A stretch of DNA of 64,000 nucleotides from a virus. Its lineage: Duplodnaviria; Caudoviricetes. Positions 4,996 to 19,417 of this stretch are shown piece after piece (the first letter of the stretch is position 1; the number at the start of each line of letters is the position of its first letter). A model generated the notes under the pieces. It did not search any database. It had not been told where the DNA came from and was given only the letters and a program-made list of their open reading frames with translations. Location: the IMG/VR virus record IMGVR_UViG_3300032280_000651, positions 1-64,000 of that record; one strand, written 5' to 3'. Position numbers and translations under genes: made by a program.

Positions 4996-5116
4996 TTTGG
5001 TAGTTTAAAACTTATGAGTATCTTTGTACTCTATTAAAATAAAAATAAAATATGGGATTTCTATTCGGATTACTACTAGGTTACTTACTTTGGGGAAATA
5101 AAAATAACTAAAATAA

Positions 5117-5347
5117 ATGGAAAAGTTTTTCTTAACAATTATGCACTCTTGGGGTTCAGATACTCCACAAGAAGTATTCTGGGGACTAAATGATTTGATC
5201 ACCTGGGCAAAAACAAAGGGGTTTGATAATAAAGGATTATTTTTTGATGATCCAATTGGTTACAATGTAGATGAAGATAAAGCACAAAAAGATAATGAAC
5301 AGTTAGTAAAAGAACTTTCAGAGTTTTTTGAAAAAAATTTAAAATAA
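5117..5347 (+). CDS. Hypothetical protein
   Basis: 76 aa ORF with AT-rich initiation region. Confidence 0.6.
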   Translation: MEKFFLTIMHSWGSDTPQEVFWGLNDLITWAKTKGFDNKGLFFDDPIGYNVDEDKAQKDNEQLVKELSEFFEKNLK

Positions 5348-5348
5348 A

Positions 5349-5380
5349 TTTGGTACAATAGAAAACTTTTTATACTTTTG
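5349..5380 (+). promoter_or_regulatory. Bacteroidota-type sigma promoter of tRNA operon 1
   Basis: TTTG (5349-5352), 20 nt, TACTTTTG (5373-5380); matches the -33/-7 consensus TTTG/TAnnTTTG. Confidence 0.75.
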
Positions 5381-5391
5381 TACTATAAAAA

Positions 5392-5423
5392 TAACAAAAT
5401 AACAAAATAACAAAATAACAAAA
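5392..5423 (+). repeat. Tandem 8-mer (TAACAAAA)x4
   Basis: Units start at 5392, 5400, 5408 and 5416. Confidence 0.9.
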
Positions 5424-5453
5424 AGGGAGAATAAACTTTTAATATATACAATA

Positions 5454-5555
5454 ATGAAAACAACTAATCTAAATATTAACTTAACGCTGAATGTCTTATG
5501 TCTAAGACAAAGACCGGGTTTTGCTATATTTAGAGCAAATGATTTTAGTTGGTAA
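5454..5555 (+). CDS. Attenuator leader peptide 1 (Leu/Arg), 33 aa
   Basis: MKTTNLNINLTLNVLCLRQRPGFAIFRANDFSW; 5 Leu (CTA, TTA, CTG, TTA, CTA) and 3 Arg (all AGA); lies between promoter and terminator. Confidence 0.8.
   Translation: MKTTNLNINLTLNVLCLRQRPGFAIFRANDFSW
5515..5523 (+). promoter_or_regulatory. Antiterminator strand of attenuator 1
   Basis: CGGGTTTTG is the exact reverse complement of CAAAACCCG (5584-5592), the 5' arm of the terminator. Confidence 0.7.
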
Positions 5556-5584
5556 TAACTGAAAGTATATCTAAATAATATAAC

Positions 5585-5617
5585 AAAACCCGAAATGTAA
5601 AAGTTTCGGGTTTTTTT
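5585..5617 (+). terminator. Intrinsic terminator of attenuator 1
   Basis: AAAACCCGAAA-tgtaaaag-TTTCGGGTTTT plus T-tract, 20 nt before the first tRNA. Confidence 0.85.
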
Positions 5618-5637
5618 ATGTAAAAAAATAAATAATT

Positions 5638-5709
5638 GGCCTCATCGTTCAACGGATAGGACTAAAGCCTTCTAAGCTTTCAATCGGGGTTCGAATCCCT
5701 GTGGGGTCA
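5638..5709 (+). tRNA. tRNA-Arg(UCU)
   Basis: Cloverleaf; anticodon arm aaagc-CTTCTAA-gcttt; GGTTCGAATCC T-arm. Confidence 0.9.
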
Positions 5710-5721
5710 CAAAATAAATAT

Positions 5722-5808
5722 GCGTCTGTGGTGAAATTGGTAGTACACGCAGGTCTTAAAAATCTGTGGTCAGGAATGACCGTGAGGGTTCGACTCCCTC
5801 CAGACGTA
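5722..5808 (+). tRNA. tRNA-Leu(UAA)
   Basis: caggt-CTTAAAA-atctg; long variable arm; GTTCGACTC. Confidence 0.9.
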
Positions 5809-5817
5809 CAAAAATAT

Positions 5818-5898
5818 GCCCCGTTAGTTCCGACTGTCTTCTAAACAGTTAAGGATAATTGGACGCTGAAAATGTAGGTTCGAGTCCTACACGGGGTA
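5818..5898 (+). ncRNA. D-arm-less tRNA-like RNA, anticodon UCU (Arg)
   Basis: 7-bp acceptor, 8-nt linker instead of a D arm, actgt-CTTCTAA-acagt, 24-nt extra region, canonical T arm. Confidence 0.75.
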
Positions 5899-5909
5899 CA
5901 AAATCACTT

Positions 5910-5994
5910 GTCGGAGTGGTGGAATGGTAGACACGCAGGTCTTAAACACCTGTGCTCCGGAAGGGGCGTGAGGGTTCGAGTCCCTCCTCCGATA
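5910..5994 (+). tRNA. tRNA-Leu(UAA), second copy
   Basis: caggt-CTTAAAC-acctg; long variable arm. Confidence 0.9.
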
Positions 5995-6002
5995 CAATAT
6001 AT

Positions 6003-6085
6003 GCCGAGGTGGTGGAATGGTAGACACGCTGGTCTAAGAAGCCAGTGTCCGAAAGGACGTGCGGGTTCGAGTCCCGCTCTCGGTA
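6003..6085 (+). tRNA. tRNA-Leu(AAG)
   Basis: ctggt-CTAAGAA-gccag; variable arm gtcc-gaaa-ggac. Confidence 0.9.
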
Positions 6086-6090
6086 CAAAA

Positions 6091-6173
6091 GCACCAGTGG
6101 TGGAACTGGTATACACGGTGGCCTCAAAAGCTACTATCTATATGATGTGTGGGTTCGACTCCCACCTGGTGTA
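6091..6173 (+). tRNA. tRNA-Leu(CAA)
   Basis: gtggc-CTCAAAA-gctac. Confidence 0.9.
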
Positions 6174-6180
6174 CAAAAAT

Positions 6181-6263
6181 GCGGGTATGGGGGAATGGTA
6201 GACCCGCCAGATTTAGGATCTGGTGTCCGAAAGGACGTGTCGGTTCGAGTCCGACTACCCGTA
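6181..6263 (+). tRNA. tRNA-Leu(UAG)
   Basis: ccaga-TTTAGGA-tctgg; long variable arm. Confidence 0.9.
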
Positions 6264-6277
6264 CAAAAATTAAAAAT

Positions 6278-6502
6278 ATGAAACTAATTAAAGTTGAAGA
6301 TAAGATATATGAAGTGAAACCTTGTTTACATTGTAAGAAGGATGAAGTAGAATATGTCGAACAAGATCTTCCTTTTAATAATGAAGGATGGGCATGTAAT
6401 TATTGTGATTCAACATATGTGATTTTCAATACTGAGATAGCTGAAGATGTTACTCTTAGAGAAGAAAGAGAAGAAAAGTTAAAAAATATAATAAAAGATT
6501 AG
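6278..6502 (+). CDS. Small zinc-ribbon protein
   Basis: CLHC...CNYC; true start ATG 6278, since the ORF-track extension runs through tRNA genes. Confidence 0.7.
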   Translation: MKLIKVEDKIYEVKPCLHCKKDEVEYVEQDLPFNNEGWACNYCDSTYVIFNTEIAEDVTLREEREEKLKNIIKD

Positions 6503-6532
6503 GTAGTAGAACAAAAAAATATGATAATATTT

Positions 6533-6563
6533 TTTGTAGATTAAAAAACTTATAGTATATTTG
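6533..6563 (+). promoter_or_regulatory. Bacteroidota-type promoter of tRNA operon 2
   Basis: TTTG (6533-6536), 19 nt, TATATTTG (6556-6563). Confidence 0.7.
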
Positions 6564-6649
6564 TACTCTGTAATAATACAGAAAGTGTTTTACACTACTA
6601 TAATTAAAGAAAAACAAAAAGGGACAATAAAAATATAATATATAATACA

Positions 6650-6739
6650 ATGAAAACAAATACTATAAATATTAATGTGATTACGATTACGAATTGTGTG
6701 AATAGCACGACTTCGGGTAAGCGATTATGTATAGTATAA
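6650..6739 (+). CDS. Attenuator leader peptide 2 (Thr/Ile/Asn/Val/Cys), 29 aa
   Basis: MKTNTININVITITNCVNSTTSGKRLCIV; codons 3-18 are only T, N, I, V or C. Confidence 0.8.
   Translation: MKTNTININVITITNCVNSTTSGKRLCIV
6712..6718 (+). promoter_or_regulatory. Antiterminator strand of attenuator 2
   Basis: TTCGGGT is complementary to ACCCGAA (6768-6774) in the terminator 5' arm; can instead pair upstream in hairpin 6690-6715. Confidence 0.65.
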
Positions 6740-6763
6740 TGACATATATTATATACAATTTAT

Positions 6764-6800
6764 AAAGACCCGAACTCAAAAAGTTTGGGTCTTTTCTTTT
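6764..6800 (+). terminator. Intrinsic terminator of attenuator 2
   Basis: AAAGACCCGAAC-tcaaaaa-GTTTGGGTCTTT plus TCTTTT, 6 nt before the first tRNA. Confidence 0.85.
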
Positions 6801-6806
6801 ATATAT

Positions 6807-6878
6807 TCTCCTATGGTGAAATGGTTATCACGTCTGACTGTTAATCAGTTATTCCAGGTTCGAGTCCTGGTGGGAGAG
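6807..6878 (+). tRNA. tRNA-Asn(GUU)
   Basis: Loop CTGTTAA; G73. Confidence 0.9.
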
Positions 6879-6885
6879 CAAATAT

Positions 6886-6960
6886 TCCTCCGTAGCTATA
6901 ATGGTTTAGAGCGGCGTTTTGTTAAAGCGATGGTTACAGGTTCGAGTCCTGTCGGAGGAG
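6886..6960 (+). tRNA. tRNA-Asn(GUU), second copy
   Basis: Loop TTGTTAA; G73; 27:43 mismatch. Confidence 0.85.
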
Positions 6961-6969
6961 CAAATATAT

Positions 6970-7050
6970 TGGCACATACCAGCCCAACCTGATAAGTTGG
7001 AGAACTGTAAATGGTTGTTGAAAATGTGGGTTCAAATCCCTCTGTGCCAA
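6970..7050 (+). ncRNA. D-arm-less tRNA-like RNA, anticodon GAU (Ile)
   Basis: 7-bp acceptor, 7-nt linker, ccaac-CTGATAA-gttgg, 25-nt extra region ending TGAAAAT, T arm; same length and layout as 5818..5898. Confidence 0.75.
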
Positions 7051-7063
7051 CAAAAAAATATAT

Positions 7064-7149
7064 GGGACTGTGGTGTAGTTGGTTAAACATCCCACTCTTA
7101 CAAAGTGGAGACGAGAAGTATAACGTAGGTTCGAATCCTACCAGTCCTA
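7064..7149 (+). tRNA. tRNA-Val(UAC) with 16-nt variable region
   Basis: ccact-CTTACAA-agtgg. Confidence 0.85.
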
Positions 7150-7160
7150 CAAAAATACCT

Positions 7161-7235
7161 TGGTCGGTATATCAATTGGTTTAGATTATCACGCTGATAC
7201 CGTGAAGGTTGCGAGTTCGAGTCTCGCCCGACCAA
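7161..7235 (+). tRNA. tRNA-Ile(GAU)
   Basis: tcacg-CTGATAC-cgtga. Confidence 0.9.
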
Positions 7236-7301
7236 CAAAAAATTAAAGGTTCGAAACAGATGGAAGTGTCAATTTTTAATATATATAAATAAAAAACATA
7301 T

Positions 7302-8018
7302 ATGTTAAAAATAGAAAAATTACAATTAGAATTACTAATAGATAAAGGACTCTCTTTAAAAATTATTGCAGAAGAATTAAATATATCATATTCGACTATT
7401 AATAGACTATGTAATAAATATAATTTAAAGTCTAAATTTAATGAGTCAAAAAATGAACTAGTTAATTGTATTGAATGTGATATAGAATTTAATGGAAATA
7501 AAAAAGAAGAAAGAAAGTTTTGTAGTAGATCGTGTTCGGTTACTTATAATAATAGAATTAAAATTTTCACAGATGATACTAAACTAAAAATAAGTAATAC
7601 ATTAAAAAGTAGAAATAAAAAAGTAATTAAAATAAGACTATGTAAAAATTGTGATAATCTAGTTGGATATAAAAAAATAATATGTGATAGTTGTAGAGTA
7701 GATTATTATCAGTATTATAGACCAGCATCAAATTTCAATTTCGATATAAATCTCTACAAAGATAAGTTTGAACTTTCATTAGTTACTAAATATGGTTGGT
7801 ACAGCCCTTCAAATAAAGGTAATAACCTAAACGGTGTGAGTAAAGATCATTTATTTAGTGTTAAAGATGGTTTCGATAATAAAGTTAGTGTAGATCTAAT
7901 AAAACATCCGGCGAATTGTAAATTAATGATACATAAGGATAACCAAGTTAAAAATAGTAAAAGTGTAATAACACTAGAAGAATTGTTAAAAAGAATAGAA
8001 GAATGGAATAAGAAATAA
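7302..8018 (+). CDS. Putative HNH-like homing endonuclease inside tRNA array 2
   Basis: N-terminal HTH, CxxC zinc motifs, C-terminal SKDHLFS...HPANC...HKDNQVK His-Me finger. Confidence 0.65.
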   Translation: MLKIEKLQLELLIDKGLSLKIIAEELNISYSTINRLCNKYNLKSKFNESKNELVNCIECDIEFNGNKKEERKFCSRSCSVTYNNRIKIFTDDTKLKISNTLKSRNKKVIKIRLCKNCDNLVGYKKIICDSCRVDYYQYYRPASNFNFDINLYKDKFELSLVTKYGWYSPSNKGNNLNGVSKDHLFSVKDGFDNKVSVDLIKHPANCKLMIHKDNQVKNSKSVITLEELLKRIEEWNKK

Positions 8019-8020
8019 AT

Positions 8021-8108
8021 GGTATAGTGCCTGAGTGGTCGAAAGGTGCGGTCTGCAAAACCGTAATGATTAATTTCATCATCGTGGGTTCAAATCCTAC
8101 CTATACCT
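8021..8108 (+). tRNA. tRNA-Cys(GCA) with long variable arm
   Basis: gcggt-CTGCAAA-accgt; U73; variable stem atga/tcat. Confidence 0.85.
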
Positions 8109-8112
8109 CAAA

Positions 8113-8199
8113 TGTAGAGACAACAAGGATGATAGGAAAAAGTATTAACTAGTTCGAATCTAGGCCGGGTCTTAACGGACCTGGCATTACAACTCTACA
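8113..8199 (+). ncRNA. Rearranged tRNA-like RNA (terminal stem, T-arm, closed 8-bp hairpin)
   Basis: TGTAGAG/CTCTACA terminal stem; ctag-TTCGAAT-ctag followed directly by gccgggtc-ttaacg-gacctggc. Confidence 0.55.
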
Positions 8200-8203
8200 A
8201 ATT

Positions 8204-8276
8204 GCCGATATAGCTCAATAGGTAGAGTGCCAACTTGGTAGGTTGGAGGTTAAGGGTTCGATTCCCTTTATCGGAT
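8204..8276 (+). tRNA. tRNA-Thr(GGU)
   Basis: ccaac-TTGGTAG-gttgg; G1:A72 mismatch. Confidence 0.85.
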
Positions 8277-8284
8277 CAAATAAT

Positions 8285-8364
8285 GCTGGTGTCGCATAGT
8301 GGCCGATTGCACCTACCTTGTAAGTAGGAATTCCACACCGCAGGTTCGAATCCTGTCACTAGCT
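8285..8364 (+). tRNA. tRNA-Thr(UGU)
   Basis: cctac-CTTGTAA-gtagg; 11-nt variable loop. Confidence 0.85.
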
Positions 8365-8369
8365 CTGAA

Positions 8370-8401
8370 AAAAGACTTCTTTTAATTAAGAAGTCTTTTT
8401 T
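8370..8401 (+). terminator. Terminator closing tRNA operon 2
   Basis: AAAAGACTTCTT/AAGAAGTCTTTT hairpin plus T-tract. Confidence 0.75.
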
Positions 8402-8485
8402 ATTTTAAACTAAATCCGTATCTTTGTATATAAATAAAAAGTAAAATATGTTGATATGGACTAATATACTTTTAATATATAGTAT

Positions 8486-9262
8486 ATGGATACAAATAAA
8501 ATAATTGAACTATCAAAAGATAAAACTCAAAAAGAAATCGCAGAAATATTTAAAGTTTCTTCTTCGACAATAGGAAGAATACTTAAAAAAAATAATATAA
8601 AAACAAATCGTTCAAGACTAAATGAAAGTAAATTATATTTTAATATGAATTATTTTGATGATATTGATACAAATGAGAAAGCATACTGGTTGGGATTTAT
8701 TGCAGCAGATGGTTGTCTTAAATCTAATAAAGTTAGACTTGTTTCAAAAGATGAGGAAGTAATAGTAAAATTTAAAAATGCTATTGAGTCAGAACATAAA
8801 ATTGTAAGATCAATAACTACTGATAAACGTAGTGGAAAAAAATATGAACTATTTATAATTTCAATAACTAATAATATATTCACTAAAAAATTAGAAAAAT
8901 TTATAAATATCGATAAAAGCAATAATTTTAATCTTCCAAAAATAGACAATAGTTTATATCCATTTTTCCTCGCAGGTATGTTTGATGGAGATGGTTCTTT
9001 TTCAATATATGGTTGTAATAAAAATAAAATTAAAGCAAGTTTAATATCTACTAAAGAGTGTTTAGAACAAATAATAAATTTATTAGAGGTAGAGATAAAT
9101 TTAAAGAAAAGACCAACAATAATAAAACATTACACAACATATAGATTTTATCTGTATAAATATAGTACGTATTTTTTAGACTATATCTATAATGAAAAGT
9201 ATAAAACAATATATCTAAGTAGAAAATATAATAAATATTATGAATATAAAAATAGAAAGTAA
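8486..9262 (+). CDS. LAGLIDADG homing endonuclease with N-terminal HTH
   Basis: AYWLGFIAADGC and FLAGMFDGDGS motifs. Confidence 0.85.
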   Translation: MDTNKIIELSKDKTQKEIAEIFKVSSSTIGRILKKNNIKTNRSRLNESKLYFNMNYFDDIDTNEKAYWLGFIAADGCLKSNKVRLVSKDEEVIVKFKNAIESEHKIVRSITTDKRSGKKYELFIISITNNIFTKKLEKFINIDKSNNFNLPKIDNSLYPFFLAGMFDGDGSFSIYGCNKNKIKASLISTKECLEQIINLLEVEINLKKRPTIIKHYTTYRFYLYKYSTYFLDYIYNEKYKTIYLSRKYNKYYEYKNRK

Positions 9263-9698
9263 AAAAAAACGGATATTTGTTGATTTAGATGGAGTTTTGT
9301 GTGATTTTTTTGGAGCATTTAAAGATGTTCGTAGAAAAGACCCTGACTTTAAATTTCCTCAATCACGAATAGGTTTTTTCAAAAATCTTGAACCAATGCC
9401 AGATGCAATTGAGTCTTTTAATAAATTAAAAGAACATTATGACGTTTGGATTTTAACACGTCCTTCATTTAAAAATATCAATTGTTTTAACGAAAAAGCT
9501 GAGTGGGTATTAGAACATTTAGGTTTTGATATATTAGAAAAAACGATTATGTGCGGTGATAAATCTTTAGTGAAAGGTGACTACCTTATTGATGATAATG
9601 GTCAAAATGGGCAACCTGAATTTGAAGGTGAATGGATTGAATTTGCATCAGAAGAATTTCCTGATTGGACTGCAGTTATTGATTACTTAATTAAGTAA
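9240..9698 (+). CDS. 5'(3')-deoxyribonucleotidase (NT5C, HAD fold)
   Basis: IFVDLDGVLCDF, ILTRP, KGDYLIDD. Confidence 0.85.
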   Translation: MNIKIESKKKRIFVDLDGVLCDFFGAFKDVRRKDPDFKFPQSRIGFFKNLEPMPDAIESFNKLKEHYDVWILTRPSFKNINCFNEKAEWVLEHLGFDILEKTIMCGDKSLVKGDYLIDDNGQNGQPEFEGEWIEFASEEFPDWTAVIDYLIK

Positions 9699-9699
9699 A

Positions 9700-10038
9700 T
9701 TATCTAAGCCACCAATCACCACCTTTAATTTCTTCAAAGTCTTTAACATCATATTTATACTTATAAACCCAACACTCAATATCTTTTGATGTGTTTGTTT
9801 TAACTCTTATATACTCATCACCTTCAAAATCATCTAGTTCAGGAAATAATGATGAGTCTATAAGATATATATCACCTAAAACTTCACCAGAACCACTTAC
9901 AAAACCAGGATAGAATTCATTTACTTTATAGATCTTACCTTTGATTGTTGCTCTTCCAAAAAAAACAGGTTTCTTTAGTAGATTTTTCGCACTATCTCTA
10001 AATTGACCATATACAAATAAATATTCTTTCATAATCAA
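9700..10038 (-). CDS. Gamma-glutamylcyclotransferase (AIG2-like)
   Basis: LFVYGQFR and LDDFEG. Confidence 0.8.
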   Translation of the reverse strand: MIMKEYLFVYGQFRDSAKNLLKKPVFFGRATIKGKIYKVNEFYPGFVSGSGEVLGDIYLIDSSLFPELDDFEGDEYIRVKTNTSKDIECWVYKYKYDVKDFEEIKGGDWWLR

Positions 10039-10433
10039 TAATAACCTTTTCCCATAACAGAATGTCTAACACCACCTCTTGGATTTTCTACATCACCAGT
10101 ATATCTTGGAATTAAATGACAATGAAATTGCATTACTGTTTGTCCTGCTGGTTCACCACAATTCATTCCTATATTGTAACCATCTGGTTCATATTGTGAC
10201 TCAACTATCTCCTTTGCTTTATCTAACATTTCAGATAGTTTATTCTTTTTAGATTGACTTAAATCAAAGTAAGTTTCTTCTGGTCCATTTGTTATAATAA
10301 GGATGTGACCTGGACTTGTTGGAAATCCATCAAACATTATAAAGAAGTCACTATCTTGATACAAGACTTTATCGTCTTCTATCATATGTCTTCCGAACTT
10401 AACATCTTCATTTAAACTTGTAAACTTTCTCAT
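10035..10433 (-). CDS. HIT family hydrolase
   Basis: PTSPGHILI and QFHCHLIPRY; likely start MRKFTSLNE at 10433 behind a TATATA motif. Confidence 0.85.
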   Translation of the reverse strand: MRKFTSLNEDVKFGRHMIEDDKVLYQDSDFFIMFDGFPTSPGHILIITNGPEETYFDLSQSKKNKLSEMLDKAKEIVESQYEPDGYNIGMNCGEPAGQTVMQFHCHLIPRYTGDVENPRGGVRHSVMGKGYY

Positions 10434-10443
10434 ATAGTATATA

Positions 10444-11310
10444 TTAAAAATCAGATTTATATTTCCATATAAATCCAGCGTGTGATTTTCTCTTACCGGT
10501 ACAAACATTTATAACATTACTCTTTTGAAATCCCGAATCAACTAAACCATTTAAGTTACTCCACTCTTTTACTATATTACCATCCGTATCAATTTGTAGA
10601 ATAATATCTTTTATCTTACCTTTATTATGCGGTTCTTTCCCAAGTCTTGCAATAGATTGCTTTTGTCTTGTTTCATCAGATACTATTTTACCTCTATTGG
10701 ATTCTGCTAATTTATCTTTATGTTCCTGTGATAAAGGAACACCTCTTAATTTAGCAGTTCTTTTTTCAATCCATTCTTCACTCTGCTTAATACCAGTTTT
10801 AATTTCAATCATTTTATCAATAGACGATTGTTTATGTTTTTTACCATACATGGGATGATTTTTACCTGATAGTATGATATTTTTATTCCAATAATCTTGT
10901 AATCTTAGATGATTTTTATTCTCAACTGCTTTTATACTCATTTTTTCTTTAACATCATCAGTATATACATAACCAGATACACCATCACCACCATCAGTCA
11001 TATTATATAATAAGCCACCTGATTTCTTTCTACCTAAATACTTTATTAATTTAATCTCTAAATCAATAGCTTCTTCTTCACTTTCAAACTCTTTTAATTT
11101 TACTATTAATGGTATATTTTCTTCTAAAATCATTTTATTTAACTTATTATAAAAATAATATTTATATCTTTTCCTATCATTAAGATGTGTAAACATTCTA
11201 TTGTTTTGACCCTTACCAATATAAATAGGTCTATGTGTAAAAATAATATCACCAAAAGATATATTTTCTTCCATTTTTGAATCTAAATAACCATATACAT
11301 AATATTTCAT
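10444..11310 (-). CDS. GIY-YIG-type homing endonuclease with NUMOD3/NUMOD1 motifs
   Basis: YYVY...IYIGKG..NR; HPMYGKKH; AGFIWKY C-terminus. Confidence 0.8.
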   Translation of the reverse strand: MKYYVYGYLDSKMEENISFGDIIFTHRPIYIGKGQNNRMFTHLNDRKRYKYYFYNKLNKMILEENIPLIVKLKEFESEEEAIDLEIKLIKYLGRKKSGGLLYNMTDGGDGVSGYVYTDDVKEKMSIKAVENKNHLRLQDYWNKNIILSGKNHPMYGKKHKQSSIDKMIEIKTGIKQSEEWIEKRTAKLRGVPLSQEHKDKLAESNRGKIVSDETRQKQSIARLGKEPHNKGKIKDIILQIDTDGNIVKEWSNLNGLVDSGFQKSNVINVCTGKRKSHAGFIWKYKSDF

Positions 11311-11360
11311 ATACTATATATAAAATAAAATCAACTACCTTTTAGCATTATCAATAAAAA

Positions 11361-13577
11361 TTACTCAAATAAAGGAAACGAAGGAAGCACGAGACGAGTG
11401 TTCGCATTATCTGCAAAAACTAAATACTTAGAATCGTCTCTAATGATAGCTTGATTAAGTATCTTATCAAATGTAGATTCTGGTATAATGTCTGTGAATA
11501 ATCTTAAATTAGTAGCCCTCATATCAGAACCTAACAATTGAGGATTAGTATTCTCAATTTGGAATTCAATTGGTGTCATATCTTGTTCATCTGAATAAAC
11601 TTTTCTCAAGAAGTTATTGATTAGTTTACCAGCATCTTCTTCAAAATCAACATTACGTTTATAAATAAATTGAGACATTTTTCTATTTCTTTGATCTATA
11701 TTTAAAGTATAACAATACCAAACTTCTTCATCTAACATTAAATCAGAATTAGTTGTATAAGTATCACCATTTAAAGTAACTGTTATTACATCATTTTGTA
11801 AATTAACTTTCCAACCAATTGGATTACCAACAGTAGTATCATCATAATAATTAAAGAAGTTATAAACTTCATCTTGGATATAATTATTGATACTAAACCA
11901 AAGAGTAAATCCAATGTTATCAGATACCTTTAATATAGGATCGGAATTAAGGTAATTTACTGCTGGAGTTCCTGCATCAACTGAATATAAATCATAGTTA
12001 GATTTAGAAATAATAGTAGAAGCATTTTCAATAAGTTCTTTGTTAATCTTAGCCAAATATTCTAGTCTAATTAAATCTTTAGTTAGAACTTTAGTTTGAA
12101 TTTTATTAGCAACTGCTTTTTTATCATCAACATTCTCAACACCAAATAATGAATCAATAGTAGAGTTCTGTGTAAGCATATCCAATTTGTTTTGAATTTC
12201 CACAGTACCTGCTTGTACATTTGCTTTTTGGTTGTATTTTTTCAGAATTAATTTATAATAAACAGACGAGTTATTAAATCCTCTAAATTGAGATACGTGG
12301 TCTACTTGAAACATTCTATTTAATTGACAGAAGTACATAAAGTCTTCTTTACCTGGTCTTCTTTGAACACCAAATACTTGTTTAAATTGTTCTTTTGTAA
12401 TATGTACTTCCATATTATCAAACAAACTTAAATCAAATTGATTCATTGTGATTTGAGAATCTGGAAACTCATTATTATTCACAGATACTTTTATATCACC
12501 TTCACAAACAATGTTATATAATTGATACTCATGCATTGAATAATCTTGTCCTTTTGCATCAGGATCAGTTACAAAGTAAATAACTGAATGTCCGAATAAT
12601 AGTTGTGCATCTGTACTTAATTTATTTAAAAGATTAAGTGCAGTACCTTGATTATATGGATTATAAAGAAGTGCTTGTTGATCTGCAGTTGTTTTTGGAA
12701 ATAAGTTTGTTGCTTCACAACTACCTCCACCATCTGAGTTTAAATTAGTATTAGGTATGAAATTTCCATTTGCATCAAATGTACCAGTTAAATTAGATTG
12801 ACAACATTCTCTTAAACCATATAAATTAGTTTTTTGATAATCTAAAGTAACATTTTGAAAGTTTCCGATAAGATTTATGTCTTGTATTTTTACTGGTGAA
12901 TCAGAAGTGTTTTCGATAGAGTATTCAACCTCAAAAAATCTTGTAGGTGTCAATCTTTTAGTAGAAACATTTTCTTTTGTTAAAACCTCCCAATCAGACC
13001 AAGTTCTAGAGCTATCTTGTGAGTATCTCCATTTTAAAGTTGCACCTTCAACACCGGTCGATGAAATAACTTCTACATCTTCTAACTTAAATACTTTATA
13101 AATAAATGGTGGTTTAATAACTTGAGTACCACCAGGAACTAACTGTACTGCAGAACCATCATCAGTCATAGGTCTATCAATATTTCCCTCAATTTTATAT
13201 TCTAATATTCTAATAGAACCAATAGAGTTATTACCTTTTCTTACCCACTTAATATCTAAATATAAAGGATCTAATGGGTCGATTGTTGGAAAATTATCGA
13301 TATTCTTTTTAAGGTCAAACCAAGTAGTCCATTTATTACCGTCTCTTGATAATCTATAATACTGAGCCAAATATCTGGTATCAGTCATACCTAAAGTATC
13401 GTAAGTAAATTTGGATAATTTGCTAACATTTTGTATATTTGTAAAACTAATGATGTATTCTTCTGCTATACTATTAATATAGGGTGTTGCATCAGGTGCA
13501 GAAGCAGATGCACCGATGTTAAATTTATCAGAAATAACGATAGTTCCACTTAAAGTATTTGTATCTATTGTAAACAT
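11361..13577 (-). CDS. Neck protein, T4 gp14-like core with N- and C-terminal extensions
   Basis: Central LFGHSVIYF...FDLSLFDNMEVHITKEQF...RPGKEDFMYF...NRMFQVDHV resembles gp14; C-terminus LamG-like. Confidence 0.65.
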   Translation of the reverse strand: MFTIDTNTLSGTIVISDKFNIGASASAPDATPYINSIAEEYIISFTNIQNVSKLSKFTYDTLGMTDTRYLAQYYRLSRDGNKWTTWFDLKKNIDNFPTIDPLDPLYLDIKWVRKGNNSIGSIRILEYKIEGNIDRPMTDDGSAVQLVPGGTQVIKPPFIYKVFKLEDVEVISSTGVEGATLKWRYSQDSSRTWSDWEVLTKENVSTKRLTPTRFFEVEYSIENTSDSPVKIQDINLIGNFQNVTLDYQKTNLYGLRECCQSNLTGTFDANGNFIPNTNLNSDGGGSCEATNLFPKTTADQQALLYNPYNQGTALNLLNKLSTDAQLLFGHSVIYFVTDPDAKGQDYSMHEYQLYNIVCEGDIKVSVNNNEFPDSQITMNQFDLSLFDNMEVHITKEQFKQVFGVQRRPGKEDFMYFCQLNRMFQVDHVSQFRGFNNSSVYYKLILKKYNQKANVQAGTVEIQNKLDMLTQNSTIDSLFGVENVDDKKAVANKIQTKVLTKDLIRLEYLAKINKELIENASTIISKSNYDLYSVDAGTPAVNYLNSDPILKVSDNIGFTLWFSINNYIQDEVYNFFNYYDDTTVGNPIGWKVNLQNDVITVTLNGDTYTTNSDLMLDEEVWYCYTLNIDQRNRKMSQFIYKRNVDFEEDAGKLINNFLRKVYSDEQDMTPIEFQIENTNPQLLGSDMRATNLRLFTDIIPESTFDKILNQAIIRDDSKYLVFADNANTRLVLPSFPLFE

Positions 13578-13676
13578 AATTTATATATTAAAAAAATAAT
13601 TCTATAATGTTTGTATATTAAAATAATATGTGTATATTTGCATGTTATTAATTATAATAATAAAAAAATCGCTAAA

Positions 13677-14894
13677 ATGAATATAACAAAAAAATTCTTA
13701 CAACTAACATCTAAAACTTATCCTCACGGTACAGAGAGTGAGCTATTTCACTTGTTACCTAAAAGCTTACAAGAGGATGAATTTGGTAACTTATTTATTA
13801 AAATAGGTGAGAGCGATGCTATGTTTACTTCCCACTTAGATACTGCGACTAAAGCTAACACTAAAGTTAATCATATCTTTGATGGTGACATTATCAAAAC
13901 TGATGGTACTACTATATTAGGTGCTGACGACAAAGCTGGTGTAACAATTATGTTAAATATGATTGAAAACAAAATTCCAGGTTTGTATTACTTTTTCTTA
14001 GGTGAAGAAGTAGGTTGTGTTGGTTCTAGAAAAGTTGCTGATGTACAAAAAGTAGAGAAAATTCCAGGTATCAACAAAGTAATCTCTTTTGACCGTAGAG
14101 CTACAACTTCTATTATTACTTATCAAAGTTCAAAAAGATGTTGTTCAGATGCTTTCGGTGAAGCTCTTGCAAAAGCGTTTAACGATGTAGAATCAACATT
14201 TGATTATAAATTAGATAAAAATGGTGTTTTAACTGACTCTATACAATTCATTGGTATTTATCCAGAGTGTACAAACATTTCTGTTGGTTATTACGATGAA
14301 CACACATTTAGAGAAAGACAAGATATTGCTCACTTAACTAAACTTGCAGAAGCTTGTTTAAAAGTTGATTGGACAAGTTTACCTGTAGAAAGAGATCCTT
14401 CTAAAATCGAATACGATTACTCTTGGAGTGCTTATGGTGACGACTGGGGTTGGGGTGCTGGTGCTTGGGGTGGTTCTTCAAGATACGACACTGGTAACTA
14501 CACAAACGCTTATGCTCCGGTAAACAATGATTACAGTACATCAAGATCAAAATACGGTGCATACAAAGTAAAAACTGAGAAATCTTGGTTTTATGACGAG
14601 ACATTCCAATTCTTATCAATGGTTGAAACTAACGCTACAACTGGTAAAATAGTTAAAGTAGAATTGATTGAAGAAAGAGTTAAATACGAAGCTAAACTAA
14701 TCGAAAGATTATTCAAAGATATTGAATTACACTACACTAAAATGGAGTGGGATGGTTTCAAATGTACAGTATTCTATGAGTCTGAACACAGAACAGAATG
14801 TGATAGAAATGATTTATTAGATTACCTACCAGATTTAGACTATCGTGGTCTAGAAATTTTAGGTGATCCAGAAGATTCTACTTACATGAGCTAA
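13677..14894 (+). CDS. M28/M20-type Zn aminopeptidase
   Basis: SHLDT, LGADDKAG, GEEVG, SFDR and TNISVGYYDEH ligands; TATATTTG promoter upstream. Confidence 0.8.
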   Translation: MNITKKFLQLTSKTYPHGTESELFHLLPKSLQEDEFGNLFIKIGESDAMFTSHLDTATKANTKVNHIFDGDIIKTDGTTILGADDKAGVTIMLNMIENKIPGLYYFFLGEEVGCVGSRKVADVQKVEKIPGINKVISFDRRATTSIITYQSSKRCCSDAFGEALAKAFNDVESTFDYKLDKNGVLTDSIQFIGIYPECTNISVGYYDEHTFRERQDIAHLTKLAEACLKVDWTSLPVERDPSKIEYDYSWSAYGDDWGWGAGAWGGSSRYDTGNYTNAYAPVNNDYSTSRSKYGAYKVKTEKSWFYDETFQFLSMVETNATTGKIVKVELIEERVKYEAKLIERLFKDIELHYTKMEWDGFKCTVFYESEHRTECDRNDLLDYLPDLDYRGLEILGDPEDSTYMS

Positions 14895-14962
14895 TAAAAA
14901 AAAGTCGAGATTTCAAATCTCGACTTTTTTATTTTAATATATAAGAAAATAGAATTACTTAA

Positions 14963-15535
14963 ATGACAAACATATTTGATAGAGAAGTATGGAAAAAATA
15001 TCTACCTAAAAAATTAACTATTATTACAGATAATGGTAATTTTGATTTACTATTTTCGGAAGTATCAATAATTGGTAATATTAATGTTGCACAAATAACA
15101 TATCACCAAAACACATTTAAACATAATGAATTAAATGGTGAACCGGATTATTTAGAATTTGATATTCATTTAGTACAAGATAATGATGGTACAAAAGCTT
15201 TATCTGATCTTAAATTAAATATAGATATTACCTATGGTGATGCAATGGTATCAGAGTTTATTATAAAAATGCCCGGTAATATAGAAATTATACATTACAC
15301 AGGACTAGGCTCTAAATATGATAAAGAAACATTCTTTGGATTTGAAGATCAATCAATAAAAGATTTAGTAAACTTTTTTAATAGACTTGGATTTGAACTA
15401 GAACCTAAAGATTTCACATTTATTGATAAATACCCAGATAGCTATACTCATAAAGAGTCAATTAAATTAATAAGCGATATAAAGTATCTACAAACATATG
15501 AAGGTTTTAGAAAAAAAATAAAAAATAAACTATGA
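14963..15535 (+). CDS. Hypothetical protein
   Basis: 190 aa ORF behind TTTTAATATATA. Confidence 0.65.
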   Translation: MTNIFDREVWKKYLPKKLTIITDNGNFDLLFSEVSIIGNINVAQITYHQNTFKHNELNGEPDYLEFDIHLVQDNDGTKALSDLKLNIDITYGDAMVSEFIIKMPGNIEIIHYTGLGSKYDKETFFGFEDQSIKDLVNFFNRLGFELEPKDFTFIDKYPDSYTHKESIKLISDIKYLQTYEGFRKKIKNKL

Positions 15536-15759
15536 TACCACAAATTGAAATTACAGAAGAACAAATTCAAAAATCCGTATCTGCTGCATTTGACTCTGTC
15601 AATCTAATAAATGAACTAAATGCACAACCTTCTTTAACTGAAGAAGATCAAGATAGATTAAATAGAAATAAAGAACATCTAACAATAATGTTAGATAAAG
15701 ATTGGTTTTTTGCTACTTTAACAGAAGAACAAAAAACTGACATTAACGCTTGTCTATAA
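15532..15759 (+). CDS. Hypothetical protein
   Basis: 75 aa ORF overlapping the previous stop. Confidence 0.6.
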   Translation: MIPQIEITEEQIQKSVSAAFDSVNLINELNAQPSLTEEDQDRLNRNKEHLTIMLDKDWFFATLTEEQKTDINACL

Positions 15760-15777
15760 AAAAAACAAAAAAAAACA

Positions 15778-16200
15778 ATGGCTATAGTAAAATTTGACGA
15801 TTTCAAAAAAGAAGAAGAACAAAGTAAACTTCAAGACTTCAAAAGAGGATTCACTAAAAATAGTGACAATCAACAATTTCCTAAAAATACAAAATCACGT
15901 TTTAATAATAAAACTAGAAAAATAGATGATTTATCTGCTGAAGAAGTTGATGATAAAATTGAAGTTTTAGAAGAATCTAAAATCAATGAATCTAGTATTG
16001 ACTATGATGTATTAGATAAAATGGTTAAACTACCTTGTTATAACAAACTAAGAGAAGATCTTAGAAGTGCTATAAACGAGTTTACAACTAGTTTATCTGA
16101 TAGTTCATCAGAAATTGGATATGACGAAGGTGATACAGATCATGATATGGCTTTTAATGCAGCAATTCAACAAGCAATTGATGAAATAGTTGGTTGGTAG
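15778..16200 (+). CDS. Hypothetical protein
   Basis: N-terminus MAIVKFDDFK. Confidence 0.6.
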   Translation: MAIVKFDDFKKEEEQSKLQDFKRGFTKNSDNQQFPKNTKSRFNNKTRKIDDLSAEEVDDKIEVLEESKINESSIDYDVLDKMVKLPCYNKLREDLRSAINEFTTSLSDSSSEIGYDEGDTDHDMAFNAAIQQAIDEIVGW

Positions 16201-16241
16201 TTTGGAAAAATAATTCTATATTTGCAGAATAATAATATAAG

Positions 16242-16775
16242 ATGATAAAAAAATTTGAAAACTTCAATAAGAAGAAAGTTATAGTATTTCACGGACTAGG
16301 TGGAGAACCTAATTCAGAAAGAACTAACATATTAAGAAACTTTGGATATGAAGTAGTTTATCCACACATTGATTTTGAAATGGAATGGTCTAAAGATAAA
16401 GGTAAATCCTTATTTGAAAGAACTTCAAGATTAGCAGAAGGATGTGATCTAATAATAGGTGTTAGTTTAGGTGGTTATCTAGCAAGTTTAATTGGTAATT
16501 ATTTAGGTATTGATTGTATCTTAATAAATCCCGCACTAGACAGAAACAAAACAAGATTAGATATAAAAAATCTAGATTGTCCACACCTATCTAATAAATG
16601 TAATATGGAAGTATTCATCGGAGATAAAGATACTTTAATACCAAAAGAATATACATTAGATTATATTAAAGATAATAATATTAATTGTAAAATTCATCAT
16701 ATCATTGGTATGGAACACAGATGCTCACTAAATAACTTTTTAGAGATTTTAAATCAAAGTAGTTTGGTAGTTTAG
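16242..16775 (+). CDS. Alpha/beta hydrolase (YqiA-like esterase)
   Basis: FHGLGG, GVSLGG nucleophile elbow, LINPAL, D...H. Confidence 0.8.
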   Translation: MIKKFENFNKKKVIVFHGLGGEPNSERTNILRNFGYEVVYPHIDFEMEWSKDKGKSLFERTSRLAEGCDLIIGVSLGGYLASLIGNYLGIDCILINPALDRNKTRLDIKNLDCPHLSNKCNMEVFIGDKDTLIPKEYTLDYIKDNNINCKIHHIIGMEHRCSLNNFLEILNQSSLVV

Positions 16776-16865
16776 AAAAAAGTAGTATCTTTGTAAAACA
16801 AATGAGATAAAACTCAAATAAAAATAAAAAAAGTTTGGTAAAATGAAAACTTTGTATTACTTTTG
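16763..16865 (+). promoter_or_regulatory. Two tandem Bacteroidota-type promoters of tRNA operon 3
   Basis: TTTG 16763 + 19 nt + TATCTTTG 16786; TTTG 16834 + 20 nt + TACTTTTG 16858. Confidence 0.7.
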
Positions 16866-16921
16866 TAGTATAAAATCAAAGAAAAACAAAAAGGAACAAT
16901 AAAAGTTTAATATATAGTAAT

Positions 16922-17020
16922 ATGAAAAATGTAAATGTAAATATCGTAGTTATGCCGCAGCCGATGCAGGATCAGGATCGTTTCACGAACCAGACTAACT
17001 ATGTATTTATATCACATTAA
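16922..17020 (+). CDS. Attenuator leader peptide 3 (Met/Pro/Gln/Asp), 32 aa
   Basis: MKNVNVNIVVMPQPMQDQDRFTNQTNYVFISH; codons 11-19 are only M, P, Q or D. Confidence 0.8.
   Translation: MKNVNVNIVVMPQPMQDQDRFTNQTNYVFISH
16992..16999 (+). promoter_or_regulatory. Antiterminator strand of attenuator 3
   Basis: AGACTAAC is complementary to GTTAGTCT (17050-17057) in the terminator 5' arm. Confidence 0.65.
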
Positions 17021-17043
17021 GAAATTACGTGTATAAAAATTAC

Positions 17044-17078
17044 AAATCCGTTAGTCTTTGAGACTAACGGATTTTTTT
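17044..17078 (+). terminator. Intrinsic terminator of attenuator 3
   Basis: AAATCCGTTAGTCT-ttg-AGACTAACGGATTT plus T-tract. Confidence 0.9.
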
Positions 17079-17097
17079 ATGGAATAAAATTAAATAT

Positions 17098-17169
17098 TGG
17101 AGTATCGTATAATGGTAATTATTCAGGGTGTTGGCCCCTGCGATTTGGGTTCGAATCCTAATACTCTAA
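17098..17169 (+). tRNA. tRNA-Gln(UUG) with G33
   Basis: caggg-TGTTGGC-ccctg. Confidence 0.75.
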
Positions 17170-17175
17170 CAAATA

Positions 17176-17261
17176 CTAGGCATTGGGCAGAGGCTATACC
17201 CACCTGATTTGGGATCAGGATTCTTAACAGATAATCGTCAGTTCGAATCTGACTGCTTAGA
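17176..17261 (+). tRNA. tRNA-Pro(UGG) with 17-nt variable region
   Basis: cctga-TTTGGGA-tcagg. Confidence 0.8.
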
Positions 17262-17268
17262 CAAAAAT

Positions 17269-17357
17269 AGTCGTGTGGTGGCAAAGGTTGCCGACCTGCC
17301 TGTCACGCAGGGTTGTCTTCGGACATTGATATGCCGGTTCGAGTCCGGTCACGACTG
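17269..17357 (+). tRNA. tRNA-Asp(GUC) with long variable arm
   Basis: cctgc-CTGTCAC-gcagg; G73; variable hairpin tgtc-TTCG-gaca. Confidence 0.8.
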
Positions 17358-17365
17358 CAATATAC

Positions 17366-17439
17366 TGGAGTATCGTATAATGGCATAATTACACTGCGTT
17401 TTGACCGCAGCAACATAGGTTCGATTCCTATTACTCCAA
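17366..17439 (+). tRNA. tRNA-Gln(UUG)
   Basis: ctgcg-TTTTGAC-cgcag. Confidence 0.85.
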
Positions 17440-17448
17440 CAAAAATAA

Positions 17449-17522
17449 CGCGTAACGATCCACAGAGAGAGGTTACCCGACTTGGTATCGGGGTTATTGT
17501 CAGTTCGAGTCTGACTTACGCG
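17449..17522 (+). tRNA. tRNA-Pro(UGG), divergent D arm and U37
   Basis: cccga-CTTGGTA-tcggg; gtcag-TTCGAGT-ctgac. Confidence 0.7.
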
Positions 17523-17528
17523 ACGAAA

Positions 17529-17601
17529 TAGTGCTGTAGCTCAGTGGAAGAGTGTCTGGTTGTCGCCCAGAAGGTCGCGGGTTCAATCCCCGTCAGTACT
17601 G
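17529..17601 (+). tRNA. tRNA-Asp(GUC)
   Basis: tctgg-TTGTCGC-ccaga; G73. Confidence 0.85.
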
Positions 17602-17663
17602 CAATTTCGATTCCGATAGGGACCGATAATTATTTAATATATATAATAAAATAATTATTTATT

Positions 17664-18473
17664 ATGTATGAAAAAGTTTGTAAGTGGTGTGGTAATTTAA
17701 TCTCTGTTGAAAAACAACAATCATTTGCATCACATGTCGCTGGATGTATTATGAATCCAAAAGTAGAAGAACGATATAAAAAGAATAGTGAGCGATTCAA
17801 GGGTGTTCTAAAGGTTGAACGAATCGAAATATCTAAAGAGTGTCCTAAATGTAAAGAAATTTTTAAAGTAATTGCAACTGAATCAGAAATTAGACGTAAT
17901 AAGGTCAGATTATTTTGTTCTAGAAAGTGTTCCAATACAAGAATACATTCAGAGAAAACTAAAGAAAAAATGTCATCGGCATCAATTGGTATTATTCCTT
18001 ATAATAAAGGAGTTAAAAAAATTAAAAAATTTACTTGTCTTAAATGTGGTAAAGAAGGTATTATAAAAAGATATAACAATAAACAGAAGTATCATTCAGA
18101 ATGTTGGAGATTATCATCTGGTGGTATAAGACAGGGAAGTAGTAGAGGTAAAAGTGGTTGGTATAAAGGTTACTGGTGTGATAGTAGTTATGAACTAGCA
18201 TATCTTATTTACAATTTAGATAATTCTATTTTGATTGAAAGAAATAAAAATGGTTTTGAATATACTCATAATGATGAAAAACATTTATTCTATCCTGATT
18301 TCATAATAGGAGGTAAATATATTGAGATAAAGAATTATAAATCGGAACTTACTGATAGTAAAATATCACAATTTCCATATGAAATAGAAATATATTATAA
18401 AGAAGAAATGAAACCATTCATAGAATATGTAAAAAATAAATATGGTAAGGATTTTATAAAATTATATGAATAA
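17664..18473 (+). CDS. Putative zinc-finger PD-(D/E)xK homing endonuclease inside tRNA array 3
   Basis: CxxC repeats; CDSSYELAY...YPDF...YIEIK. Confidence 0.65.
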   Translation: MYEKVCKWCGNLISVEKQQSFASHVAGCIMNPKVEERYKKNSERFKGVLKVERIEISKECPKCKEIFKVIATESEIRRNKVRLFCSRKCSNTRIHSEKTKEKMSSASIGIIPYNKGVKKIKKFTCLKCGKEGIIKRYNNKQKYHSECWRLSSGGIRQGSSRGKSGWYKGYWCDSSYELAYLIYNLDNSILIERNKNGFEYTHNDEKHLFYPDFIIGGKYIEIKNYKSELTDSKISQFPYEIEIYYKEEMKPFIEYVKNKYGKDFIKLYE

Positions 18474-18474
18474 T

Positions 18475-18544
18475 ACCGAGTGATCTTGGGGATCAGAGAC
18501 GGTTCATATCTGACTCTAGAAGGGTTCGATCCCCTTGCTCGGTA
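18475..18544 (+). tRNA. tRNA with CAU anticodon (Met)
   Basis: Loop TTCATAT; short D arm gatc/gatc; mismatch in anticodon stem. Confidence 0.7.
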
Positions 18545-18550
18545 CAAATT

Positions 18551-18683
18551 GGTAGTGTTAGCACTAAAGTCAGAGATTTAATCGGATGACGGGATTATAT
18601 GATAATGTGAGTTATGTAATTCTAGGAATGGGTGCACCTTGAGGAGGAAATCACATTTGCTGGTTCGAGTCCAGCCACTACCG
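18551..18683 (+). ncRNA. 133-nt tRNA-like RNA with expanded interior
   Basis: ggtagtg/cactacc acceptor plus gctgg-TTCGAGT-ccagc T arm; interior stems gtca/tgac and aatgtga/tcacatt; no 7-nt anticodon loop. Confidence 0.6.
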
Positions 18684-18689
18684 CAAAAT

Positions 18690-18761
18690 GGCGTTGTATC
18701 TCAGAGGCAGAGAAGTCGGCTCATATCCGAACGGTCGGGATCTCGGAATTCCCCAACGCTA
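18690..18761 (+). tRNA. tRNA with CAU anticodon (Met), atypical T loop
   Basis: tcgg-CTCATAT-ccga; T loop CTCGGAA. Confidence 0.7.
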
Positions 18762-18796
18762 CTAACAAATAAGATTTCATTTTTAATATATAAATA

Positions 18797-19417
18797 ATGA
18801 GTGATTTATTTAAGAAAGGTAAAGATTTAATTGATAAAGATATTGTCAAAGTTGAAATATCATTTATTAATTTTGAAGGAAAAGAAGATACAGGTATCTT
18901 AGAAGTTCATAAAGATGTTAAAGATGAAGTAGTTAAAATATTTAACGAAGTAAAAGAAATCAATTTTCCAATATTTAAAATGGAAACCGTTGATAAATAT
19001 GACTTTGATGATGAGAAATCAGTTGTTGCAAACAACTCGTCGGCTTATAACTTTAGATTTGTTAGTGGTACAACAAAATTAAGTGACCACGCAATTGGAC
19101 TAGCAATTGATATAAATCCCAAACAAAATCCTTGGGTACACCCATCAGCACTAAATAAATTTCCTTATGTTCCAGGTGAAAAAGGAACTATTGAAAAAGG
19201 TGACAAAGTAGTGACAATATTTGAAAAGTATGGTTGGTCTTGGGGAGGTAATTGGAGAAATCCAGATTATCAACACTTTTTTAAAGGTGGTGATGTAAAT
19301 AAAAGAGTAAAGAATAAATTATATGATGATTTAGGTATAGATAATCCTTACTTACAGAATCAACCTAAAGGTAGAATAGATAGATTTAAAGATTTTGTTA
19401 AAAGAATTATAAAATAA
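18797..19417 (+). CDS. M15 family metallopeptidase (peptidoglycan peptidase)
   Basis: NFR...SDHAIGLAIDINP...WGGNW...DYQHF. Confidence 0.85.
   Translation: MSDLFKKGKDLIDKDIVKVEISFINFEGKEDTGILEVHKDVKDEVVKIFNEVKEINFPIFKMETVDKYDFDDEKSVVANNSSAYNFRFVSGTTKLSDHAIGLAIDINPKQNPWVHPSALNKFPYVPGEKGTIEKGDKVVTIFEKYGWSWGGNWRNPDYQHFFKGGDVNKRVKNKLYDDLGIDNPYLQNQPKGRIDRFKDFVKRIIK

Follow-up and report, generated by a model that had tools for sequence, protein, structure and literature searches.

How a phage decides when to transcribe its tRNA genes is the question raised by the window analysed here, a stretch of 64,000 nucleotides (nt) from a virus of the Caudoviricetes (Duplodnaviria; positions 1 to 64,000 of the IMG/VR record IMGVR_UViG_3300032280_000651). 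In this window, three tRNA arrays are each preceded by a short open reading frame (ORF) and an intrinsic terminator. A first reading of the letters alone, referred to below as the original prediction, took these cassettes for ribosome-dependent attenuators whose leader codons match the tRNAs they control. The concordance of leaders and arrays, the unit-specific complementarity with its compensatory changes and the presence of the predicted leader classes in relatives were all found to be in favour of this reading. It is highly probable that the cassettes are multivalent ribosome-dependent transcription attenuators through which slow decoding leads to more tRNA transcription. Judging from the sequence, production of a given tRNA set is probably restricted to times at which the codons read by that set are decoded slowly.

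The three cassettes share one order of elements on the plus strand: a promoter of the Bacteroidota type, an ORF of 29-33 codons, a strong intrinsic terminator, a short gap and a tRNA array. Scans for ORFs, terminators, tRNAs and promoters located every element where it had originally been placed. Leader ORFs 1, 2 and 3 occupy positions 5454-5555 (33 codons), 6650-6739 (29 codons) and 16922-17020 (32 codons), respectively. Between each leader and its tRNAs, the terminator scan found a hairpin followed by a T-run, with a 12-bp stem in unit 1 (5585-5621; terminator site 5585-5614), a 13-bp stem in unit 2 (6764-6800; site 6764-6794) and a 14-bp stem in unit 3 (17044-17081; site 17044-17074). The region contained 15 terminator-like sites, compared with 4.3 +/- 2.2 in shuffled sequences. 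Because the gap between the terminator and the first tRNA is only 13-24 nt, no promoter fits into it.

The starts of the three units, which had been proposed to be promoters, proved to be exact matches to the pattern TTTG-N-TAnnTTTG, the housekeeping promoter of Bacteroidota. Unit 1 has this promoter at 5349-5380 (TTTG-N20-TAnnTTTG), unit 2 at 6533-6563, and unit 3 has two in tandem at 16763-16793 and 16834-16865. When the spacer was set to 19-21 nt, 16 exact plus-strand matches were obtained against 3.8 expected, including those at 5349, 6533, 16763 and 16834. A scan for sigma-70 promoters gave no enrichment (89 found, 96 expected). The upstream regions of the cassettes are paralogous, with a mean column identity of 70% and a long conserved block 5' of the ATG. 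The motif TTTAATATATA occurs in 9-10 copies per strand of the whole genome against 0.43 expected, a 20-fold enrichment (for example, at window positions 5438, 8471, 16906 and 18782 and, on the minus strand, 13592 and 10448). The arrangement of TTTAATATATA, 4-5 nt and ATG is common to the leader starts and to at least nine long phage ORFs, and most copies of the motif have the ATG of a real ORF at this distance; leader 1 starts 5 nt 3' of the motif, as real phage genes do. TTTAATATATA may act as a phage-specific promoter from which near-leaderless mRNAs arise, or as a start signal. The 5' untranslated region of unit 1 also carries about four tandem copies of the A-rich 8-nt unit ATAACAAA (5389-5420), which units 2 and 3 lack.

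The match between leaders and arrays was evident in units 2 and 3. Codons 3-18 of leader ORF 2 all encode Thr, Asn, Ile, Val or Cys and include rare G-ending codons (ACG three times, GTG twice). Array 2 (6807-8365) comprises, in order, Asn, Asn, a tRNA-like gene with anticodon GAT that lacks a D arm (6970-7050), Val, Ile, a homing-endonuclease-like ORF (7302-8018), Cys, an odd element (8110-8203), Thr and Thr, and the operon ends with a terminator at 8368-8401. In leader ORF 3, codons 11-19 (16952-16978) all encode Met, Pro, Gln or Asp, with the rare codons CCG and CAG among them. Array 3 (17098-18761) comprises Gln, Pro, Asp, Gln, Pro, Asp, an ORF of the NUMOD3 type (17664-18473), a weak CAT tRNA (18474-18545), a 133-nt tRNA-like RNA (18550-18684) and a further CAT tRNA (18690-18761). 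Among synonymous codons, those that the phage uses least are preferred in the leaders (ACG, 3% of usage; GTG, 4%; CCG, 6%; CAG, 12%; CTG, 1%). Both runs, of 16 and 9 consecutive codons, are thus present before matching tRNAs as originally described. Their log-likelihood ratios (15.5 for leader 2 and 17.8 for leader 3) exceeded the null maximum of 7.5-7.9 obtained from the 282 other ORFs of 20-45 codons in the 79-kb genome.

The pairing of leaders with arrays was then compared with all permutations, a check that the original prediction had proposed. No other permutation equalled the true pairing, whether among the 6 of this genome, the 720 of each of the related genomes G001 and G005 or the 5,040 of LR745206.1. 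The correspondence extends to isoacceptors. Arg(TCT) is preceded by leaders with AGA codons, and Arg(ACG/GCG/TCG) by Ser/Arg runs with CGY and CGA codons; for Ile, an ATA-rich leader accompanies the TAT anticodon and an ATT-rich leader the GAT anticodon. Chance likeness between leaders and arrays is left with next to no probability. Leader 1, taken alone, does fall within the range of random small ORFs, yet leaders 2 and 3 score above every small ORF of the genome and the true pairing is uniquely best in three further genomes, so that for the family as a whole chance is refuted by the small-ORF null and the permutations together.

Scanning for the conserved cassette brought up six contigs of IMG/VR. 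Five of them carry 39-48 tRNA genes in several arrays, and the leader ORFs are kept in seven genomes. Searching viral contigs with degenerate back-translated leader patterns returned only the same relatives and two chance matches without tRNAs (L031 and L032). When the unit 3 cassette was compared by blastn with GenBank phages, a match was found in LR745206.1, an uncultured megaphage record of 634,780 nt without annotation; the same search with the unit 2 cassette gave no match. LR745206 has been placed among the megaphages of more than 630 kb, and a SusC-like gene has been noted in its genome (PMC9723777). It contains seven units, which together cover nearly all amino acids.

The five relatives that were fetched contain homologues of all three leaders as well as further classes. 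Leaders with Lys, Trp, Phe and His codons precede Lys, Trp, Phe and His tRNAs, and a poly-Ser/Arg(CGN) leader precedes Arg(ACG) and Ser tRNAs. Poly-Gln leaders precede Gln tRNAs in G005, the most divergent contig (five tRNAs; six consecutive Gln codons in the leader), and in LR745206.1 (three tRNAs). The arrays are cut differently in different genomes. G001-G004 have a single Tyr/Glu/Ile(ATA)/Gly/Ala array behind a single mixed leader; in G005 and LR745206.1 there are separate Tyr/Glu and Ile(ATA)/Gly/Ala arrays, each with a matching leader, and the Leu and Asn/Ile/Val/Cys/Thr arrays are merged behind one mixed leader. Since the leaders match the content wherever the arrays are cut differently, it can be concluded that leader composition tracks array partition. 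Leaders for Ala, Glu, Phe, Gly, His, Lys, Ser, Trp and Tyr had been predicted to exist outside the window, and all of them were found in the relatives; this genome, as a 79-kb fragment without cassettes beyond the three, offers no place to look for them.

Initiator tRNAs cannot be sensed by elongation, and the initiator-type CAT tRNAs of the relatives sit outside the attenuators. These tRNAs (L011 1300-1373, L016 1752-1825, L019 1553-1626, L023 1852-1925, L026 1522-1596 and LR745206.1 364870-364942) have no 1:72 pair, have G:C pairs in the anticodon stem and lie just 5' of the promoter of the Tyr/Glu leader.

Each leader also contains, just 3' of the codon run, a strand complementary to the 5' arm of its own terminator. 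This strand, called region 2 below, is CGGGTTTT in unit 1 (5515-5522; 8 bp with 5585-5592), TTCGGGT in unit 2 (6712-6718; 7 bp with 6768-6774) and AGACTAAC in unit 3 (16992-16999; 8 bp with 17050-17057). The complementarity that had been noted at first was thus confirmed at 7-8 bp in all three units. When leaders and terminator arms were swapped among 12 units, the duplexes of leaders with their own arms amounted to -138.6 kcal compared with -97.7 +/- 8.2 kcal for swapped pairs (p<=1e-5). In LR745206.1, the corresponding values were -78.1 and -54.3 +/- 6.5 kcal, and only 2 of 5,040 permutations were as good (p 4e-4).

Covariation of this pairing, another check suggested at the outset, was found in the form of three compensatory changes that keep the antiterminator (2:3) helix. 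In the Leu/Arg class, CGGGTTTT/AAAACCCG is replaced by TGGGTTTT/AAAACCCA in two relatives, and a third relative has an intermediate mismatch. In the Gln/Pro/Asp class, AGACTAAC/GTTAGTCT is replaced by AAACTAAC/GTTAGTTT in one relative, and the helix of G005 is AGGCTA/TAGCCT. These changes were read directly from the sequences, with specificity assessed by the swaps, because in the MAFFT alignments the terminator arm was displaced by one column in two rows (A2) or gaps were introduced (A3). In contig G002 (L014 1075-1226), the first start of the Gln/Pro/Asp leader has been lost by a frameshift after three codons and the terminator has been replaced; an internal ATG directly 5' of the control run remains, as does complementarity to the apex of the new hairpin.

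Another explanation is that termination is not under the control of ribosomes. The terminators would then act constitutively, as insulators or as processing signals, or be overridden by an antitermination factor or RNA polymerase of the phage, and the mini-ORFs would serve another purpose, such as encoding a peptide or providing a decoy template. The TTTAATATATA motif in the cassette, with its possible role as a phage promoter, and the weakness of several 2:3 helices would agree with it. This explanation is nevertheless quite improbable, because it leaves unexplained why the codons of the leaders follow the tRNAs of their arrays from genome to genome and down to isoacceptors, why leaders are complementary to their own terminator arms with compensatory changes, and why the complementary strand is positioned exactly at the end of the codon run.

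The consequences of ribosome position were studied by folding the transcript up to the terminator loop for every codon, with the ribosome footprint masked from -15 to +12 relative to the A site. With the A site in the control run, 7-9 nt of the terminator arm were sequestered, and with the A site past the end of the run, 0-4 nt were sequestered; this pattern was obtained in 11 of 13 units. Sequestration and release of the arm were likewise found in six of the seven units of LR745206.1. Conditional read-through and its polarity are predictions from sequence, and the following course of events may be proposed. Host RNA polymerase would start at the Bacteroidota-type promoter, and the short ORF, carrying the codon run read by the tRNAs encoded downstream, would be transcribed and translated at once. 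Directly after the run comes the 7-8-nt region 2, which would be able to pair with the 5' arm of the terminator 50-70 nt further on. If scarcity, damage or absence of the cognate charged tRNA makes decoding slow, the ribosome would stay 5' of region 2, which would then be free to capture the emerging terminator arm, and the polymerase would read through into the array. If decoding is fast, the ribosome would run over region 2 and through the 8-12 codons that follow it in the ORF; the arm would be left free, the terminator would fold, and no tRNA would be made. Since the output is the sensed tRNA set itself, each unit would be a negative-feedback regulator of one tRNA group.

The stop codons of the leaders lie 23-43 nt 5' of the hairpin. 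In Escherichia coli, a terminator located 28 nt past a stop codon was about 90% efficient, and one located 5 nt past it was less than 10% efficient (PMC4824070). Considering these spacing data, a ribosome finishing the leader would not mask the terminator.

Several observations weigh against attenuation as proposed here. The 2:3 helices are short (6-10 bp), and those of the Ser/Arg, Tyr/Glu/Ile/Gly/Ala and Ile/Gly/Ala units are no better than those of shuffled leaders. A 1:2 protector hairpin was seen in the minimum-free-energy folds of unit 3 and of the poly-Gln unit and is weak or absent in most of the others. Most units fold the antiterminator by default in the absence of a ribosome, unlike the logic of the trp type; therefore, in contrast to trp, termination would require translation. 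Equilibrium folding leaves kinetics out of account, and likewise the steric bulk of a ribosome. Only a small number of relatives were available, some of them close, which limits the compensatory events to three, and coupling of transcription and translation in the Bacteroidota hosts is assumed. Unit 1 adds further difficulties: equal or higher scores than that of leader 1 were obtained for 58 of the 282 small ORFs, and its Arg codons 18, 20 and 27 are too near the antiterminator strand for classical control codons. According to the masked folding, a ribosome stalled at these codons would cover region 2 and favour termination.

The last point bears on the opposite polarity, in which fast translation of the leader would give read-through and stalling would give termination, so that each unit would be a feed-forward or positive-feedback switch and not a homeostat. 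Such a polarity is improbable. It would suit the codons nearest region 2 (Arg 18/20/27 of unit 1 and, in unit 3, the final four of the run), at which a stalled ribosome would mask the antiterminator strand, and in the equilibrium folds region 2 becomes free once more when the ribosome is parked at the stop codon. However, most control codons are located where a stalled ribosome leaves region 2 free, the stop codon is too far from the hairpin for direct occlusion of the terminator, and there is no evident benefit in positive feedback on the supply of tRNA.

Unit 1 was considered separately. Array 1 (5638-6264) holds Arg(TCT), five Leu tRNAs and a D-arm-less TCT tRNA-like gene, in the order Arg(TCT), Leu(TAA), the tRNA-like gene (5818-5898), Leu(TAA), Leu(AAG), Leu(CAA) and Leu(TAG). 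The original prediction had described leader 1 as clustering Leu and Arg(AGA) codons before Leu and Arg tRNAs. Five Leu codons (6, 10, 12, 15 and 17) and the three Arg codons, all AGA, are indeed present, but their enrichment is not significant by itself, and leader 1 as a stand-alone Leu/Arg sensor was rejected as unproven. The remaining codons within positions 3-20 encode Thr, Asn, Ile, Val, Cys or Gln, and the terminator scan of the region found no terminator separating array 1 from unit 2. Because its other codons are nearly all for Asn, Ile, Val, Cys and Thr and no terminator intervenes, unit 1 may be a remnant or a partner of a merged Leu+Asn/Ile/Val/Cys/Thr unit and may work with unit 2, as in G005 and LR745206.1.

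Attenuation presupposes that the leaders are translated. Translation is inferred from their open frames, from indels in multiples of three, from substitutions that keep the amino-acid set and from the spacing of TTTAATATATA and ATG. The frames are open for 16-38 codons in DNA of 29% G+C, and substitutions between homologues inside the runs are mostly within, or into, the amino-acid set of the array. These features also bear on direct sensing of tRNA by RNA without translation, in the manner of a T-box, whereby the run would pair with the anticodons of uncharged tRNAs. The runs do display the cognate codons of the downstream tRNAs, as such sensing would require; it is nonetheless very improbable. 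No T-box or other riboswitch of Rfam matched even at E<=1 (for the T-box covariance model, in window positions 4500-20000), every run shares its frame with a conserved ATG that bears the start signature of real genes, the frames are long and their indels keep the phase, and T-boxes read one specifier codon, not 9-20.

Several features of the arrays were observed beside the regulatory question. ARAGORN found 19 tRNA genes in three plus-strand arrays (5638-6264, 6807-8365 and 17098-17602). D-arm-less and other odd tRNA-like genes were missed by it, and Rfam was used for them; it added the two D-arm-less genes and the CAT tRNA at 18690-18761, and the weak CAT tRNA at 18474-18545 was found only with a permissive ARAGORN setting. 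The two D-arm-less genes are 81 nt long, with a few nt in place of the D arm and about 22 nt inserted after the anticodon arm, and their Rfam tRNA scores are 40.5 bits (5818-5898) and 34.5 bits (6970-7050). Odd genes akin to them occur in relatives too, for example, at L009 3267-3347. Long variable arms are normally confined to Leu, Ser and Tyr tRNAs in bacteria; here, Val, Cys, Thr, Pro and Asp tRNAs of 81-90 nt have them (7064-7150, 8021-8109, 8285-8365, 17176-17262 and 17269-17358). The 133-nt RNA between the two CAT tRNAs has a tRNA-like acceptor stem and T arm, and the element between the Cys and Thr tRNAs of array 2 is structured. Homing-endonuclease-like ORFs (helix-turn-helix, LAGLIDADG and NUMOD3) lie within or beside the arrays at 7302-8018, 8486-9262 and 17664-18473; the relatives carry different insertions of this kind at other array positions.

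The genome from which the window comes is a virus fragment of 79,181 nt with 28.7% G+C, in which only these three cassettes were found. It is a fragment of a giant phage with Bacteroidota-like hosts, and functions of the giant-phage type (NAMPT, a Lon-like protease and homing endonucleases) are encoded in it. The ORFs for nicotinamide phosphoribosyltransferase and the Lon-like ATP-dependent protease, typical auxiliary genes of giant phages, are located at 96-1691 and 26861-28963 of the window. For giant phages of such hosts in general, it is likely that independent self-closing feedback loops are run, in which each tRNA group is transcribed only on slow decoding.

If this is true, tRNA genes would for the first time be seen under the control of leader-peptide attenuation, with a sensor that reads its own product. 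The phage would audit the decoding capacity of the host per codon family and could refill exactly what is missing, regardless of whether the cause is a mismatch in codon usage, host shut-off or a tRNA-cleaving defence. With such a direct, modular, virus-borne homeostat for decoding capacity, it would be understandable how needless tRNA synthesis is avoided by phages that carry 40-60 tRNA genes, and phage tRNAs could be linked, in a way open to testing, to codon-usage mismatch and to tRNA-targeting immunity. That the units counter anticodon-nuclease defences is speculation; phage tRNAs can counter tRNA-cleaving defences (PMC10264068, PMC11464382). The leaders would be a ready read-out of the tRNAs that the phage "expects" to be limiting, and synthetic biologists working with Bacteroidota could use them as compact sensors for the supply of tRNA. 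Because the system is present, unannotated, in the published 635-kb LR745206.1, it is open to study at once.

Attenuation by leader peptides is textbook knowledge, with amino-acid biosynthesis and a small number of synthetase genes as the known cases. Full-text searches of the available literature found no report of leader-peptide attenuators before phage tRNA clusters or any tRNA genes, and in a paper on huge-phage genomes the words attenuat-, leader and terminator are absent from the text. The leader families of Rfam (Thr_leader, Phe_leader and others) did not reach their thresholds; the best hits were to Thr_leader, with 24-27 bits against a threshold of 55. The tRNA clusters of T4, T5 and other large phages resemble the present ones in that large arrays are interspersed with homing endonuclease genes, and such clusters have been discussed as codon compensation or as a counter to tRNA-cleaving defences (PMC10264068; PMC11464382). 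T-box riboswitches likewise sense the status of specific tRNAs through the choice between terminator and antiterminator and control genes related to translation, but they bind uncharged tRNA directly, with one specifier codon and no ribosome. The nearest functional relatives are the leaders of the synthetase genes in pheM-pheST and trpS2, in which a component of the decoding apparatus is under leader-peptide attenuation; this type of attenuation responds to the decoding speed of specific codons, including that caused by tRNA defects (bioRxiv 10.64898/2026.09.09.750475). There, the product is a synthetase, each leader serves one amino acid, and the operon is cellular.

The enterobacterial multivalent leader-peptide attenuators (thr for Thr and Ile, ilvGMEDA for Ile, Leu and Val, and trpL, hisL, leuL and pheL) have in common with the phage units a short ORF with a run of control codons, an intrinsic terminator overlapped by an alternative antiterminator helix, and several amino acids per leader; the poly-Gln leader of the relatives recalls hisL. 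They differ in that most phage units lack a convincing 1:2 protector helix, so that their untranslated default appears to be read-through, and in that the phage units have a Bacteroidota-type expression context without a Shine-Dalgarno sequence. A phage leader may also represent up to seven amino acids. Finally, the phage units would regulate tRNAs instead of biosynthetic enzymes, and the molecule that is sensed would also be the product.

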